Part shown: positions 1 to 55,792 of the stretch, piece after piece
Position numbering within the stretch: the first letter of the stretch is position 1
Layout of the letters: the number at the start of each line of letters is the position of its first letter
NCBI GenBank assembly: GCA_037441365.1
Contig: JBBISG010000003.1
Coordinates: 14,624 to 78,623 of the forward strand
Reading direction: 5' to 3'
Length of the DNA stretch: 64,000 nt
DNA from: Nitrospirota bacterium
Lineage (GTDB): Bacteria > Nitrospirota > Thermodesulfovibrionia > Thermodesulfovibrionales > UBA9159
Made by a program: the position numbers and the translations under genes
The notes under the pieces: model-generated
Databases searched by the model: none
What the model was told of the DNA's origin: nothing
Seen by the model: the letters and a program-made list of their open reading frames with translations, nothing else

Positions 1-82
1 TCTGATTGTATGGTTAGTTCTGCAGTTTGTTGTATTCCCCAGGCTGGGGATACCCACCTGAGGTGTTAACCCAAAGGGGTCG

Positions 83-101
83 GGGACCCCAAAAAAGAAG
101 T
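83..101. repeat. partial copy (one arm) of the GGCACCCCAAAAAGTC palindromic element
   Basis: ggggaccccaaaaaagaag matches one arm of the palindrome seen at 27271, 41000, 41354 and 42905; no second arm. Confidence 0.4.
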
Positions 102-24552: not shown

Positions 24553-24564
24553 GATTCCTGACTT

Positions 24565-24598
24565 TATAGGTTTTATAAGTCCTATAGGACCTATATCC
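24565..24598. repeat. REP-like element copy 4 (inverted orientation)
   Basis: TATAGGTTTTATAAGTCCTATAGGACCTATATCC, 12 nt after the yjbQ-like stop. Confidence 0.8.
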
Positions 24599-24795
24599 TT
24601 TGTGCCTCTTCATTATTTCATCTTCTTGGTAAGGTTATGCACGCTTTTTGTTAGCCCGTCTTTGCCTTCAGGGCAAAGGCTTCTTGCCGCGATCCGTGAA
24701 TTTTGCCTCAATCCAGCCTCTCCCTTTCTCTGCGGGTTATGGTCTTGACATCGCTCAAAAATTGGACTACCCTTAGTCTAAGGGGGTGATTTATA

Positions 24796-27263: not shown

Positions 27264-27270
27264 CATTACC

Positions 27271-27307
27271 GGGCACCCCAAAAAGTCTGCGACTTTTTGG
27301 GGTGCCC
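27271..27307. repeat. palindromic element, full copy (17-bp perfect stem, loop TGC)
   Basis: GGGCACCCCAAAAAGTC-TGC-GACTTTTTGGGGTGCCC, 8 nt after the cooS stop. Confidence 0.9.
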
Positions 27308-27345
27308 CTTTCATGGTCTTCGTCTGAAGGGTTGATGGTATTTCG

Positions 27346-31647: not shown

Positions 31648-34023
31648 ATGAAGAAACAATGGCTTGTTGAGTTTTCTGTTGACCATCCAAAAACCGTTGT
31701 CCTGCTCACAATAATTATCACTATTATCTTTATGACCCAGTTTCCAAAGATAAAGACAGACACAAATCCCAAAAACATGCTTCCTGCCACATCAGATGTA
31801 AGGGTATGGAATGATGAAGTTGACAGGATATTCGGACTTTATGAGGACACAATAGTAATCGGCATAAGAAATGAAAATGGAGTCCTGAATAAGGAGACCC
31901 TTGGAAAGATAAAGAGGATAACAGATGAGATACTGAAGATCAAGGGAGTTGCATCCAGTGATGTAAATAGCTTTCCTACAATTACAAATGTAACTGCTGA
32001 AAAGGGGACTTTAAGGGTAGCGCCTCTCATGACCGAAGTCCCAGAAACAGAAAGAAATATAAAGGCGCTTCAAAAGAACCTTTTTGAAAATCCCATACTC
32101 CTTGATCGCATTATCTCAAAGGATGGAAAGACGACAGCCATATATGTTCCCCTTGAAAAGGGAGCAAACGGTAAAGAGATTGCAGACAGGATCAGGGAGA
32201 TACTGAAGAATGAAAAAGGGGAGAAGGGCACCCAAAAAAGTCAAAGACTTTTTGGGGACCGCGGCGATGAGTTTTACATCGCAGGAGACCCTGTTGCAAG
32301 GGATACCTTTGGTGTTGAGATGTTCAAATTAATGGCGATCTTTGCTCCCCTTGCAGGTCTGATAATGCTTGTTGTGAGGTATCTCATGTTCAGGGATCTA
32401 TTCCTTTCAGTCACATTGATGATGGATGCAATGGTGAGCATTATCTGGAGCATGGGTCTTTTGATAGGGACAGGAATCCCTGTTCACATCATGAGTTCAA
32501 TGGCCCCTGTATTCCTTATGGCTATTGCAACAGACAGCATCCATATATTCAATGAATTCTACTTCCGTTTCAGAGAGAGCAAGGATAAGAGACTTGCAAT
32601 AGTAGAGACGATGAGGGCTGTTGGAAGGCCTGTCCGTTACACAGCAGCAGCAACTGCAGCAGGCTTTGCAGTCCTCCTCTTTATGCATATCATCCCTGTA
32701 AAGGTCTTTGGAGGTGTTGTCGCCTTTGGAACGATTGCCCTGAGGCTTCTGAGTTTCAGTTTCATCCCTGCTATGTTCATGTTTGTGAGCGAAAAGAAAC
32801 TTGAGGAGGCATCAAAGAGGGAGGATATAGAGGCAGGTGCATCGAGGCTTCTCAAAGGGCTTGCAAGGATAGGTGCAGAAAACCCTGTGAAGACAGCTAT
32901 TACAGGTCTTATCCTCTTTTTTGTAGCAATAGTCGGGATAACAAAGATAAATGTTAATAACAACATGGTGGACTGGTTCAAGAAGAAAAGCGAGATCCAC
33001 ATTGCTGACTCTGTTTTAAATAATGCCCTTGGCGGCACATCCCTCGGTTACATCGTGGCTATATCCTCAAAGGATGAGCATATCAAGACCCCTGAGGCAT
33101 TGAGATATATAGAAGGGCTCCAGAGGCACCTCGAAAAACTCCCTGTGGTTGGAAAGACCAGCTCAATAGCAGACCTCATAAAGAGGATAAACAGGGTGAT
33201 ACATGATAATGACCCTACTTACGACAGGGTTCCAGATTCAAAGGAGGTGATAGCCCAGTATCTATTCTTATTCAGCATGTCTGCAAGGCCCTCTGATATT
33301 GACAGCTTTATAGATTATCCAGCAAGAAGGGCAAACATGTGGGTCCAGTTAAAGACATGGGATGCAGAGGCAATGAGGGATGTGATAAAGGCTGTTGATG
33401 AGTATAAGAAGAAATCTCCTGCAGGAGACATAGAATTCAGACCTGCTGGCATTGCCTATTTCAATCTCGTCTGGAACGATGAGGTCCTCTGGGACATGGT
33501 AAAGGGCTTTGTCCTCGCAATCATAGCAGTCTTTGTGATATTGAGCCTTGACTTCCGCTCAATGAAATGGGCTTTCATTGCCTATATGCCGCTCCTGTTC
33601 ACGATTGTCCTCATCTACGGTGTAATCGGATATGTCGGCAAGGACTTTGATATGCCCATCTCCGTGCTTTCATGTCTCTCACTCGGTATGGCAGTGGACT
33701 TTGCCATTCATTTCATAAGCAGATTTAAACAGAGATTAAGAGAGAGTCAGGAGTCAGAAGTCAGGACTCAAAAGTTAAATCCTGAACTCCTTCGTGAAGC
33801 CTTGATCTGGACTGCTGCAAGGCCTGGAAAGGGAATCCTTCGTAATGCAGTTTTATTTGCATCGGCATTTTCAGTAATGCTCTTTGCACCACTTACACCC
33901 TATATAACCGTTGGTGCATTCATCGTAAGCATGATGATACTGAGTGCGATAATGACGATTATCTATCTGCCAGCCCTGATTACTTTAATGCAGGGGTGGT
34001 TATTCAAGGGAGGCACTAAATGA
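31648..34023 (+). CDS. RND-superfamily (MMPL/HpnN-like) exporter
   Basis: 791 aa; two 6-TM bundles with large loops; carries an in-frame palindromic element (32227..32260) and a heptamer-word segment (33744..33790). Confidence 0.85.
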   Translation: MKKQWLVEFSVDHPKTVVLLTIIITIIFMTQFPKIKTDTNPKNMLPATSDVRVWNDEVDRIFGLYEDTIVIGIRNENGVLNKETLGKIKRITDEILKIKGVASSDVNSFPTITNVTAEKGTLRVAPLMTEVPETERNIKALQKNLFENPILLDRIISKDGKTTAIYVPLEKGANGKEIADRIREILKNEKGEKGTQKSQRLFGDRGDEFYIAGDPVARDTFGVEMFKLMAIFAPLAGLIMLVVRYLMFRDLFLSVTLMMDAMVSIIWSMGLLIGTGIPVHIMSSMAPVFLMAIATDSIHIFNEFYFRFRESKDKRLAIVETMRAVGRPVRYTAAATAAGFAVLLFMHIIPVKVFGGVVAFGTIALRLLSFSFIPAMFMFVSEKKLEEASKREDIEAGASRLLKGLARIGAENPVKTAITGLILFFVAIVGITKINVNNNMVDWFKKKSEIHIADSVLNNALGGTSLGYIVAISSKDEHIKTPEALRYIEGLQRHLEKLPVVGKTSSIADLIKRINRVIHDNDPTYDRVPDSKEVIAQYLFLFSMSARPSDIDSFIDYPARRANMWVQLKTWDAEAMRDVIKAVDEYKKKSPAGDIEFRPAGIAYFNLVWNDEVLWDMVKGFVLAIIAVFVILSLDFRSMKWAFIAYMPLLFTIVLIYGVIGYVGKDFDMPISVLSCLSLGMAVDFAIHFISRFKQRLRESQESEVRTQKLNPELLREALIWTAARPGKGILRNAVLFASAFSVMLFAPLTPYITVGAFIVSMMILSAIMTIIYLPALITLMQGWLFKGGTK
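32227..32260. repeat. palindromic element, slightly degenerate copy inside the RND CDS
   Basis: GGCACCCAAAAAAGTC-AAA-GACTTTTTGGGGACC, translated in frame as GTQKSQRLFGD. Confidence 0.85.
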
Positions 34024-40992: not shown

Positions 40993-40999
40993 CAGTACC

Positions 41000-41036
41000 G
41001 GGGTCCCCAAAAAGTCGAAGACTTTTTGGGGTGCCC
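41000..41036. repeat. palindromic element, full copy (loop GAAG)
   Basis: GGGGTCCCCAAAAAGTC-GAAG-ACTTTTTGGGGTGCCC between the gspJ-like stop and the gspK-like start. Confidence 0.9.
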
Positions 41037-41065
41037 TTTTCGTTCTGGACCCTGCATTACTATTA

Positions 41066-41794
41066 CTATCGCATTCCAACTGGCCTGTTGCCGGTTAAGG
41101 CTGTTTGCGCCATCAACCCCCTTGCCCTCATCGGGATGATCATAGAGAAATCCATTCTCCCCTTAACAAGATGGAGTCTTATCTTTTCTGGGATGCTTGT
41201 GGCATCTGTCCATTGCTCGATCCACCTTCCCTGTTGCTCTGTCGGGTCCCTGTAGAAATACTCAAAATAAATCCGGTCAAAGGTGTCCAGGAGTTTTGTC
41301 TCTCTATTGTCATTTGTGCCGATGTTGCTTTCGGATGCATATAAAACCTGACCGGGGCCCCCAAAAAGTCGAAGACTTTTTGGGGTGCCCTGCTTCCCAT
41401 AGTTAGCTGATTCTACCCTGTAAGTGACAATGACATAACCCCTCTGTCCGCTCCAGATAGAGTAGTTTGTTGAAAATTGCATTGAGTCCATGCCACCTTT
41501 AAAGTAATACTTCTTAACACCATCTTCATCATATGTAAGCGGGACCTCTGACTGAATCTGGGAATCTATGATATTTAGCGATGCCCTGATTCTCTCAAGG
41601 TATTCTATCTTTCTCTCTCCTGACTCTACAGAGCGGGCTCCGAGCCTCAAGGCGCCTCCTATGATCAGGATAATAACCCCGAGTATGGCAATAGAGATCA
41701 GCAGATCAAGAAGGGTAAAGCCCCCCTCATGGGAATTCAAGATTAAAAATTTAAAATTTAAGATTTTTGAGTTCTTTAATGTTTTATTTTTCAT
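41066..41794 (-). CDS. GspJ-like minor pseudopilin with a long leader and an in-frame palindromic element
   Basis: prepilin motif HEGG-FTLLDLLISIAILG; internal GTPKSLRLFGGPG encoded by the repeat at 41354..41390. Confidence 0.65.
   Translation of the reverse strand: MKNKTLKNSKILNFKFLILNSHEGGFTLLDLLISIAILGVIILIIGGALRLGARSVESGERKIEYLERIRASLNIIDSQIQSEVPLTYDEDGVKKYYFKGGMDSMQFSTNYSIWSGQRGYVIVTYRVESANYGKQGTPKSLRLFGGPGQVLYASESNIGTNDNRETKLLDTFDRIYFEYFYRDPTEQQGRWIEQWTDATSIPEKIRLHLVKGRMDFSMIIPMRARGLMAQTALTGNRPVGMR
41354..41390. repeat. palindromic element, full copy inside the gspJ-like CDS
   Basis: GGGGCCCCCAAAAAGTC-GAAG-ACTTTTTGGGGTGCCC. Confidence 0.9.
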
Positions 41795-41810: not shown

Positions 41811-42194
41811 TCATATCTGTTTATTTGCCACCTTCAGCGTCCTCAGGGTCAGCGACCTCTCCTTTGTCCCCTTTGTCCAGCGGAGCGTCATGTCTATCTT
41901 CAGGAGTCTTACCTGAAGATTTTCTGTCCTCTCTTTCGATGTGTCGGAAACTGATACATCTATCCTGTAGCCGTCATCCGTTGCCTCACTCCACGACCTC
42001 TCTGTGAGTTTTTCATCATCGAGTATCTCCCTCATCCTTGCCTCTGCCTTCATGACAGCAGAGACATAATCGTCTGAGCTTGATACGGCCCTCAGATTGG
42101 CTGAAAAAAGCTGCAGGACCACTGTTATTGCGATGCCCAGTATCGCAATAGCCACAAGGACCTCGAGGAGGGTGAAACCCTCCATGTCCGTCAT
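41811..42194 (-). CDS. GspI-like minor pseudopilin
   Basis: 127 aa from MTDMEG-FTLLEVLVAIAILG; the 63 upstream codons in the track are translated word repeats. Confidence 0.7.
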   Translation of the reverse strand: MTDMEGFTLLEVLVAIAILGIAITVVLQLFSANLRAVSSSDDYVSAVMKAEARMREILDDEKLTERSWSEATDDGYRIDVSVSDTSKERTENLQVRLLKIDMTLRWTKGTKERSLTLRTLKVANKQI

Positions 42195-42382
42195 ACGTGT
42201 CCGTCTATCAGGGTGAGGAAGCCTGTTAGTTCGTAAGTTCGAAAGCACGGAAGGACGGAAGCAGTGAACTCCGTTGTCCGTAGTCCGTGTCCGTGTTCTA
42301 TAAACGGATAACGGAGAACGGACACGAATCACGAACTTTGCTTCTGCACTTCTGCTCTTCTGCTCTATGTTGTGCTTCTGCA
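42195..42382. repeat. heptamer-word spacer (TGTCCGT AGTCCGT GTCCGTG ... AACGGAT AACGGAG AACGGAC ... TGCTTCT GCACTTC TGCTCTT)
   Basis: 7-nt periodic degenerate arrays with inverted arms, read directly. Confidence 0.7.
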
Positions 42383-42904
42383 CTATTTTATTACAACCGA
42401 TCCAACTACAGGGTCTAACTGTATGCTCACTGACCTTCTGTTGTCAGACAGGACAATGGTTCCGCCCTCAATACCGCCTGTTGCATGAAACACAATGGAG
42501 TATTTACCACTATGAACCTCCCCTGAAAAGGGATCGATTATCCTGATATTTATACCTGATGGGATGTTTTTATCGCCCTGTCCCGCTATGCCGTAGGACA
42601 TTGAGTCAAGGTTTATCAAGACAACCTGTGTCTCACTATTAGTCCGGGCTATTGATTTAGCATGCCTGATGGTTGCTGACATCTCCCTAACGACTCCATT
42701 GAGCCTGCTTGACAGCAGGGTGTTGGCAAAAAATACGGTCGATAGACCGAGTATGAGTGTAATGAGAAAGATAACCATTATAAGCTCCAAAAGGGTGAAA
42801 CCCCTCCCATTAGAGCGATAGTGTGATAGAGCGATAGAGCGATAGTCAAATTTCCGTGAACAGTGATCCGTGAAACGTGAAACGGAACACGGAAAACGGA
42901 ACAC
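42383..42904 (-). CDS. GspH-like minor pseudopilin, start codon uncertain
   Basis: prepilin motif NGRG-FTLLELIMVIFLITLILG; no in-frame ATG near the motif; nearest in-frame start is GTG 42904 inside the repeat field (35-aa leader). Confidence 0.5.
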   Translation of the reverse strand: MFRFPCSVSRFTDHCSRKFDYRSIALSHYRSNGRGFTLLELIMVIFLITLILGLSTVFFANTLLSSRLNGVVREMSATIRHAKSIARTNSETQVVLINLDSMSYGIAGQGDKNIPSGINIRIIDPFSGEVHSGKYSIVFHATGGIEGGTIVLSDNRRSVSIQLDPVVGSVVIK

Positions 42905-42940
42905 GGCACCCCAAAAAGTCTTCGACTTTTTGGGGACCCC
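42905..42940. repeat. palindromic element, full copy in inverted orientation (loop TTCG)
   Basis: GGCACCCCAAAAAGTC-TTCG-ACTTTTTGGGGACCCC. Confidence 0.9.
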
Positions 42941-43120
42941 GGTCACGGAAAACGGATCAATAATTGGAATATCTCCCCTAACCCCGCTTTTCCAAAGAGG
43001 GAAAATCCCTCCCTTTAGCAAATGGAGGTCAGGTGGGATTTTATAAAAACATGTCGTTTCCTTATAAAAACTGTCGCTCTGTCGCTCTGCCGCACCATTA
43101 ATCCGCTGACCCATAACCCC

Positions 43121-51721: not shown

Positions 51722-51745
51722 TTTGGGGTGCTTCTGCACCCCAAA
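51722..51745. repeat. short hairpin related to the palindromic element core (TTTGGGGTGC-ttct-GCACCCCAAA)
   Basis: 10-bp perfect stem 30 nt after the uppS stop; shares the GCACCCCAAA core. Confidence 0.6.
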
Positions 51746-55291: not shown

Positions 55292-55766
55292 TTTGAAGAT
55301 GGAAGTGGATCGTGCAAAGGCAGAGGGGAAAAGGGTCGTCTTTACCAATGGCTGCTTCGATATCCTTCATGTAGGCCATGTGAGGTATCTGAGGGAGGCA
55401 AGGGGCTTTGGCGATCTCCTTGTTGTTGCCATTAATACAGACCGTTCTGTTTCGAAGATAAAGAAAGGAAGGCCAATAATCCCCGAGGCGCAGAGGGCAG
55501 AGGTGATCGCCAGTCTTGAGATGGTCGATCTTGTTACCCTCTTTGATGAGGATACACCTTACGAATTGATAAGTTTCCTCAGGCCTGATGTGCTTGTGAA
55601 GGGCGGTGACTGGAGGGTGGAGGAGATCGTTGGCTCTGACATCGTTGCAGAAACCCACAGCCTTCCGTATATCAGGGGAGTATCGACAACAGAGATAATA
55701 GAGAAGATTAAGAGGGCTTCAGAAGTTAAAAGTCGAAGGTTGAAAGTCAAAAGTCCTCGACTTTAA
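55260..55766 (+). CDS. D-beta-D-heptose-1-phosphate adenylyltransferase (RfaE domain II type cytidylyltransferase)
   Basis: FTNGCFDILHVGHVRYL; C-terminal 14 aa EVKSRRLKVKSPRL encoded by the left arm of a word hairpin. Confidence 0.8.
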   Translation: MTMGRILNWDDLKMEVDRAKAEGKRVVFTNGCFDILHVGHVRYLREARGFGDLLVVAINTDRSVSKIKKGRPIIPEAQRAEVIASLEMVDLVTLFDEDTPYELISFLRPDVLVKGGDWRVEEIVGSDIVAETHSLPYIRGVSTTEIIEKIKRASEVKSRRLKVKSPRL

Positions 55767-55792
55767 AACTTTTAACTTTAAACTTTCGACTT
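55723..55792. repeat. heptamer-word inverted array (AGTTAAA AGTCGAA GGTTGAA AGTCAAA AGTCCTC | GACTTTA AAACTTT TAACTTT AAACTTT CGACTTA)
   Basis: read directly; the rfaE-II stop codon (55764..55766) lies at the hairpin centre. Confidence 0.7.

Follow-up and report, generated by a model that had tools for sequence, protein, structure and literature searches.

Rickettsia palindromic elements (RPEs) are repeats that occupy intergenic sites as well as, in frame, the interior of unrelated housekeeping genes, to which they add a peptide at positions compatible with the fold of the host protein (PMC10969869). Other small non-autonomous repeats, such as ERIC, QMITE1 of Coxiella and the MITEs of Anabaena (miniature inverted-repeat transposable elements), are also able to fuse in frame with host open reading frames (ORFs) (PMC10969869); repetitive extragenic palindromes (REPs) are extragenic by definition (PMC12306157). 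The in-frame invasion of genes by palindromic repeats tends to be portrayed as peculiar to Rickettsia. We describe here a smaller, REP-sized hairpin of free-living anaerobes, present in five copies in a 64,000-nt stretch (the window) of contig JBBISG010000003.1 from a Nitrospirota bacterium. This hairpin is very probably a mobile selfish element and, judging from the preserved reading frame of its host genes, one that would be translated through.

The element resembles RPEs in that it, too, appears to be a selfish palindromic repeat, intergenic as well as in frame in unrelated genes, to which it adds a peptide. RPEs, however, measure about 100–150 bp, give longer peptides and belong to Rickettsia, whereas the present element is a near-perfect hairpin of 41–42 nt that adds 14 residues, its host is a free-living anaerobic member of the Nitrospirota, and its recent activity is shown by empty sites in a sister strain. 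It is RPE-like in behavior only, not a member of the RPE family. With REPs and the REPIN–RAYT systems it shares a size of about 35–40 nt, an imperfect palindrome with a conserved asymmetric flank, dispersed copies and the absence of any evident target duplication; like the repeats of bacterial interspersed mosaic elements (BIMEs), the hairpin stands in clusters with other repeat modules in some metagenomes. REPs usually occur as inverted doublets (REPINs), whereas the copies described here are singletons and often intragenic (two of five in the window, at least 11 elsewhere). MITEs found inside genes are longer and have terminal inverted repeats and target site duplications, whereas this element shows no constant duplication and is open in six frames. 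It lacks the length and host that define RPEs, the extragenic location and doublets that define REPs and REPINs, and the fixed target duplication that defines MITEs.

The core of the element, CCCCAAAAAGTC-NNN-GACTTTTTGGGG, was matched five times in the window, against 0.00 expected from 100 shuffles, and the 12-nt arm was counted 10 times, against 0.35 expected. In this pattern search, the cores at 27276, 41005, 41359 and 42909 (the positions by which we name the copies) had no mismatch and the core at 32231 had one, in agreement with the original prediction of four full copies, that at 42905 being inverted, and of a decayed fifth near 32227. A profile search of the entire window retrieved the same five copies and no others. 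The full unit reads ACCGGGGT-CCCCAAAAAGTC-NNN-GACTTTTTGGGG-TGCCCT(G), i.e., 41–42 nt with an invariant 12-bp stem formed by the two arms, a free 3-nt loop, a 2 × 2 mismatch and then a 3-bp GGG/CCC extension; its ends are asymmetric (ACC...T(G)). The loop measures 3 nt in all five copies and a search of the window for copies with a 4-nt loop found none, so the 3–4 nt proposed at first can be narrowed. Likewise, the perfect 37-nt palindrome by which the family had been described is found only at 27271–27307, the other copies having a 12-bp perfect stem, the 2 × 2 mismatch and 3 bp, and it is shorter than the mobile unit. As had been noted, no stop codon interrupts the frames of the intact copies; this holds for all six frames in each of the four. 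Predicted RNA folds of the intact copies range from −24 to −32 kcal/mol (z from −3.7 to −5.9), compared with −15.5 kcal/mol (z = −1.5) for the decayed copy 32231.

Two further sites had been proposed as relatives. With nhmmer, the half copy at 83 is marginal and doubtful (Table 1), and the hairpin at 51722, located between uppS and cdsA, has a non-significant relation to the family (E ≥ 2.9). A comparison of the window with Rfam gave no match at the gathering threshold, and a relaxed search returned only a chance match to mir-373 (E = 0.52). Separately, a 70-nt imperfect palindrome of AAAGTC words at 55723–55792, with the center AAAAGTC-CTC-GACTTT, is similar to the element's inner stem (nhmmer E = 0.07) and may be a relative or a precursor-like structure.

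We could compare the window with a sister strain, represented by two contigs (L046 and L108) of one Logan sample (SRR24079482) that are 96–99% identical to the window and were found via the GspJ homolog P0002 and the RND cluster member P0241. These contigs cover four of the copies, and three of the four, all with perfect cores, are absent there. At 41359, L046 is without exactly 42 nt (CAGGGCACCCC...GCCCCGGT) and its empty site reads AAG|CAGGTTT, which is ambiguous by 4 nt (CAGG). At 41005, the same contig is without 41 nt (AGGGCACCCC...ACCCCGGT), the empty site being GAAA|ACTG with at most 1 nt duplicated, and at 27276 L108 is without 41 nt, the empty site GCATT|TTTCATGG showing 0 duplicated bases. 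The decayed copy 32231 is common to both strains, with one synonymous difference in the L108 version. Copy 42909 lies outside the empty-site comparison, and its bounds were deduced from its setting: it interrupts tandem repeats of 14-nt period whose flanking units are 56 nt apart, i.e., 14 + 42, so the insert would be 42 nt long, with CACGG at both junctions. As far as assembled sequences can tell, the comparison shows very recent insertion in the window strain, and insertion into intergenic DNA and genes alike. Such filled and empty alleles in near-identical strains provide exact insertion junctions, which are the missing data on hairpin movement; the spread of REPs is itself still unsettled.

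The same difference could have arisen if the sister strain had lost its copies by precise excision, the window strain having gained none. Palindromes are indeed unstable and can be deleted by replication slippage, and the two-strain comparison alone leaves the ancestral state of the two intergenic sites undecided. However, slippage depends on direct repeats in the flanks, which are missing at the 27276 site, and it is more parsimonious to assume three insertions of perfect-core copies than three exact excisions within 17 kb. At 41359, none of the 14 more distant GspJ orthologs has the insert; the ancestral state of this site was therefore empty, and the strain difference is a gain. We consider loss very improbable, and under either direction the element would be mobile.

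The junctions (Table 1) show a target duplication that is not constant, its length being 0, at most 1, 4 and 5 nt. All five inserts follow a purine tetramer (GAAA, GAAA, GAAG, GGAA and GGAG), and the fourth base after the insert is always G; with five sites, a preference for purine tetramers as targets is no more than suggestive. These junctions also bear on whether the element might be a MITE derived from a classical insertion sequence (IS) with a DDE transposase, in which case the arms would be terminal inverted repeats and movement would proceed by cut-and-paste with target duplication. Being wholly palindromic, the element has inverted ends by construction, and the direct repeats CAGG and CACGG are present at two of the five junction pairs. 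A DDE enzyme, however, would not produce duplications of 0, 1, 4 and 5 nt, with no base duplicated at 27276 and at most one at 41005. In addition, a 41-nt unit is shorter than typical MITEs, and the 753 kb of related sequence showed no IS whose ends match. An origin of this kind seems quite improbable.

Table 1. Copies of the element in the window, their junctions and their host genes. Junction columns are given in the orientation opposite to that in which the unit is written in the text.
Feature	Position	Strand	Upstream	Element	Downstream	Remarks
Copy 41359 (42 nt), in GspJ-like gene	41351..41392	+	GGAAG	CAGGGCA..CCGGT	CAGG	ACCGGGGC-CCCCAAAAAGTC-GAA-GACTTTTTGGGG-TGCCCTG; exact core; minus-strand reading QGTPKSLRLFGGPG
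Copy 41005 (41 nt), gspJ–gspK intergenic	40997..41037	+	CGAAA	AGGGCA..CCGGT	ACTG	Exact core
Copy 42909, inverted, gspF–gspH intergenic	42902..42943	-	CGGAA	CACGGCA..CCGGT	CACGG	Exact core; loop TTC on + strand vs GAA elsewhere, flanks swapped
Copy 27276 (41 nt)	27268..27308	+	TGAAA	GGGGCA..CCGGT	AATG	Exact core; sole fully perfect palindrome (17+3+17); RNA fold −32.3 kcal/mol, z = −5.9
Copy 32231 (42 nt), older and decayed, in MMPL/RND gene	32224..32265	-	GGGAG	AAGGGCA..GCGGC	GATG	1-mismatch core, outer end decayed; + strand reading KGTQKSQRLFGDRG
Doubtful truncated left half, GGGGACCCCAAAAAAG	79..96	+				Downstream of sigma-54 activator gene stop; nhmmer E = 0.44 only
Host gene 1: GspJ-like minor pseudopilin, type II secretion operon	41066..41794	-				553 homologs; Pfam N_methyl/T2SSJ; source name 'general secretion pathway protein J'
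Host gene 2: MMPL-family RND exporter	31648..34023	+				Homologs carry PF03176 MMPL

Reading of the ORFs confirmed that copies 41359 and 32231 lie within uninterrupted coding sequences, in the same frame and orientation, giving GTPKSLRLFGGP and GTQKSQRLFGD. Alignments with orthologs, which had been suggested as a check, showed both to be clean 14-codon in-frame insertions. In the GspJ-like protein, the block QGTPKSLRLFGGPG is absent from 14 of 14 aligned orthologs, which are 59–98% identical to it outside a gap of 13–14 residues; in the RND protein, the block KGTQKSQRLFGDRG is absent from all 39 of the closest aligned orthologs, with a 14-residue gap. Apart from the insert, each protein can be aligned with its orthologs over its entire length, so both host ORFs are complete and not pseudogenes. 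The two genic copies are both 42 nt long, and the intergenic ones 41, 41 and 42 nt, the pattern expected from selection for an intact frame.

An alternative would be that the GTPKSLRLFGGP-like segment is ancestral or functional in these proteins, or that the repeat is an artifact of assembly or adapters. Apart from the open reading frames, nothing favors this. Orthologs are without the segment, and identical DNA occurs also between genes; the element was seen in independent NCBI metagenome-assembled genome (MAG), JGI metagenome and Logan assemblies, with a phylogenetically restricted distribution, and the decayed copy is common to two strains. In our opinion, the ortholog gaps and the shared decayed copy rule out such an explanation for all practical purposes.

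An AlphaFold model of the RND protein (mean predicted local distance difference test score, pLDDT, 70) placed residues 201–214 in the coil 190–207 (pLDDT 31–49). In the model, this coil would lie between helix 175–189 and strand 208–212, in the first extracytoplasmic domain and just before the second transmembrane segment. Among PDB structures, no relative of the RND protein was found at E ≤ 1e-10, and a profile search with GspJ matched the pilin N-terminal helix only. The inserted loops appear to occupy tolerant surface or linker positions. The same RND gene contains a second in-frame variable block (33735–33803; L108 10700–10800), in a loop after HFISRFKQRL, a position at which the orthologs are hypervariable. 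The window has AGTCAGG-type words in that block, and the sister strain has a different palindrome, 17 codons longer, with CGGAAGCT words around AAGGAATTCCTT.

Outside the window, scanning one genome per species for exact matches to the pattern yielded 45 loci, and a scan of metagenomes 61 further contigs. Most of the genome loci (31 of 45) belong to Nitrospirota/Thermodesulfovibrionales, including Thermodesulfovibrio sp. N1; the remaining ones come from Caldatribacterium, an 'Aquificales'-labelled MAG, Dehalococcoidia, Clostridia and others. Several of the distant matches share an extra 5' GGGGT, and some of them could be convergent hairpins. In the 753 kb of related sequence we counted 91 unique copies, with a conserved core of 35 nt (CGGGGT-hairpin-TG) surrounded by lineage-specific outer layers. 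No copies were present in the viral contigs and plasmids scanned. The element is probably a short non-autonomous mobile DNA hairpin, with a 41–42-nt unit, belonging to a Thermodesulfovibrionales/Nitrospirota family.

In-frame genic copies recur in these related genomes, in at least 11 conserved genes. In guanylate kinase, NuoN, HisC and a DUF815 ATPase, the Pfam match extends across the insertion; in FliK, a CbiX–CbiC linker, a response regulator, GalT, WaaA and MutL, which also have Pfam matches, the copy is in a linker or beyond the matched domains; an AcrB-like ORF with an in-frame copy was identified by eye only. The guanylate kinase copy corresponds to a 13-residue gap relative to E. coli Gmk. 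Two C-terminal replacements by the element were also seen. Together with the ortholog gaps and the empty sites, these further cases support the original suggestion of an RPE-like selfish element tolerated as an extra peptide loop. They also constitute a natural experiment on the tolerance of a fixed 14-residue cassette across many protein folds.

All genic copies found have an insert length divisible by three. As no frame carries a stop, such copies are predicted to be read through as a 14-residue hydrophilic loop, most commonly in the frame xPKSxRLFGx. Frame use among the genic copies was 8 PKSxRLFG, 3 PQKVxDFLG and 2 PKKSxTFWG, a preference that is a trend only (hand chi-square, p ~0.09), and orientation relative to the host gene was unbiased (~6 reverse and ~5 forward). 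The use of both orientations and all three frames fits an event at the DNA level followed by selection. Genic copies would then be the remnants left by purifying selection, neither targeted nor beneficial, and over time the hairpin would decay while the reading frame stays, as may have happened to the RND copy.

Could the repeat instead be a REP-like functional motif of the host (a 3' stabilizer of mRNAs, a terminator or a protein-binding site) maintained by selection, with the genic copies being accidental? The arms are invariant across species only ~70% identical in protein, although retrieval by exact pattern biases the sample toward conserved arms. At one orthologous locus in two species (L012/L041), the copy is 27/27 identical and the flanks 89%. 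The RNA folds are very stable (−24 to −32 kcal/mol), and several copies lie just past genes or tRNAs, namely 4 nt after a stop (27268), after each gene of a Dehalococcoidia locus (L023) and after tRNA-Met (L018). Against a host motif, three copies are present or absent between near-identical strains, both orientations are seen, and at least 13 coding sequences contain a copy. Selection for a host function is compatible with mobility, as co-option of a selfish element, but leaves the spread unexplained. As the main explanation we find it unlikely, albeit a host function such as transcript stabilization or protein binding may coexist with mobility.

The suggestion that the intergenic copies act as terminators found no support: there is no T-run tail, the A/T runs lie inside the stem, and none of the 23 terminator-like sites of the window is a copy of the element. 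Their location right after stop codons, also part of the original prediction, stands for copy 27276, which begins 4 nt past the stop of a Prismane/CODH-like gene, but not for the other two. Copy 41005 is 28 nt past the gspJ stop (41066–41068) and 4 nt before the gspK ATG (40992–40990), and copy 42909 is ~180 nt past the gspF stop and upstream of gspH. The ORF around copy 42909 is a mechanical ORF only, since the GspH orthologs are 144–157 aa long with leaders of 11–18 aa, which puts the copy upstream of the gene. Copies 41005 and 41359 are 354 nt apart in the same orientation, and the window copies are singletons, with no inverted doublets.

As to the mode of movement, IS608 and ISDra2 have hairpin ends and insert next to a short target motif, with no target duplication. 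The element may be similar to the IS200/IS605 group and its hairpin-only derivatives (PATE-type) in its hairpin ends, its insertion by a short motif and the lack of duplication. It differs in being a single 12-bp hairpin, whereas those elements are much longer and have two different subterminal hairpins; furthermore, two of its junctions show 4–5-nt repeats, and no TnpA gene was identified. A single-strand HUH/Y1 reaction gives the best fit to four features that speak against a DDE-type MITE, namely the hairpin, its invariant stem around a free loop, the asymmetry of the flank and the junction that has no duplication; we also count the purine-rich tetramer next to every junction in favor of this reaction. 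Movement would then occur by a single-strand 'peel and paste' reaction, catalyzed by an HUH/Y1-type enzyme that acts in trans and is of the kind found in IS200/IS605 or RAYT systems. We propose this specific mechanism tentatively, with the enzyme as a candidate class.

Several observations weigh against parts of this account. All-against-all clustering of the ORFs within 3 kb of the copies, at 45 loci, showed no recurrent protein family, orthologous loci being the only source of shared genes. Moreover, tblastn with IS608 TnpA and E. coli RAYT gave nothing significant, which is a weak negative given the hand-typed queries; by both approaches, no RAYT was found near the copies. The genes lying between paired copies (LysRS, an ABC transporter, RtcA and a serpin in L102 and L023; tRNA-SeC in L006) are all ordinary. 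The purine-tetramer rule failed for the copies of other lineages, where the boundaries of the element were guessed, and the 4–5-nt direct repeats at two junctions (CAGG and CACGG) are unpredicted by a strictly duplication-free mechanism. As for the protein products, we infer translation of the insert from the preserved reading frame. The mapping of the inserts onto structures, feasible for the RND protein, could not be achieved for GspJ: its model has the insert between two strands, but with a pLDDT of 44.7 it is too poor for confident placement.

A search of the accessible literature for the sequence, and for Nitrospirota/Thermodesulfovibrio palindromic repeats, MITEs or RAYTs, returned no description of the family. 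A broader picture, which we regard as less likely than not, is that of an undescribed active family of ultra-short (41–42 nt) single-hairpin transposons with no constant target duplication, moved in trans by a single-strand enzyme (HUH-type or new). Such a family would have its 35-nt core spread across Nitrospirota and other phyla (Caldatribacterium, Clostridia MAGs) and would give rise to recurrent 14-residue loops in essential proteins (Gmk, MutL, NuoN, HisC, and components of secretion and efflux). In practical terms, these hairpins fragment assemblies, displace gene starts and give rise to indels between strains in Nitrospirota MAGs.

Other repeats were noticed around the copies. Intergenic regions of the type II secretion operon (42185–42336 and 42852–42959) are built of short ACGGA/TCCGT word repeats, which form long imperfect palindromes and 14-nt-period tandem arrays; one of these hosts copy 42909, and the sister-strain contig L046 terminates within another such array. 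The start of the neighboring gspH (minus strand, 42801–42903) is anomalous. Within 33 codons upstream of the prepilin motif GFTLLE there is no ATG, GTG or TTG save the GTG at 42903–42901, which adjoins or runs into the end of the element. Ahead of a G-run, ATGGGAGGGG, there is an ATG (42810–42808) that is out of frame, and one additional G would give MGGGFTLLE; the orthologs start with ATG. The anomaly could stem from an error in the homopolymer, from phase variation or from the element providing the start codon. Elsewhere in the window, an intergenic segment (24562–24599, vs L108 1560–1628) shows an outright replacement in one strain relative to the other; that of the window has small TATAGG/CCTATA palindromes.

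In two Caldatribacterium species, copies at an orthologous position (L013 1718 and L043 6614) have identical arms, different loops (ACT vs TGC) and different 3' flanks; the surrounding DNA being 87% identical, this suggests re-insertion or copy replacement at one site. The copy in L018 (5508–5616) lies directly 3' of tRNA-Met, its stem being extended by pairing with the 3' end of the tRNA (CCACCATATAGA...TCTATATGGTGG), and in L006 (3879–4399) the tRNA-SeC gene stands between two copies.

In contigs from hot-spring metagenomes (L048–L104), the hairpin is one module of mosaic intergenic repeats, GTCATTCTGAGGGGCTTAA-TGCGGGGT-hairpin-TGCCCT-GCCCCGAAGCGCTGTCCTGAGC. These mosaics adjoin GTCATTGCGAGCGAAGCGAA-type modules, of a kind often translated as spurious 'hypothetical proteins' in MAGs. 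An element subfamily with TTCAGCC words on both sides occurs in L077, L080 and L087, and in MutL and WaaA the entire block of words and hairpin is in frame, e.g., FSVQPSALG-SPKSPRLFGV-PFSLQP.

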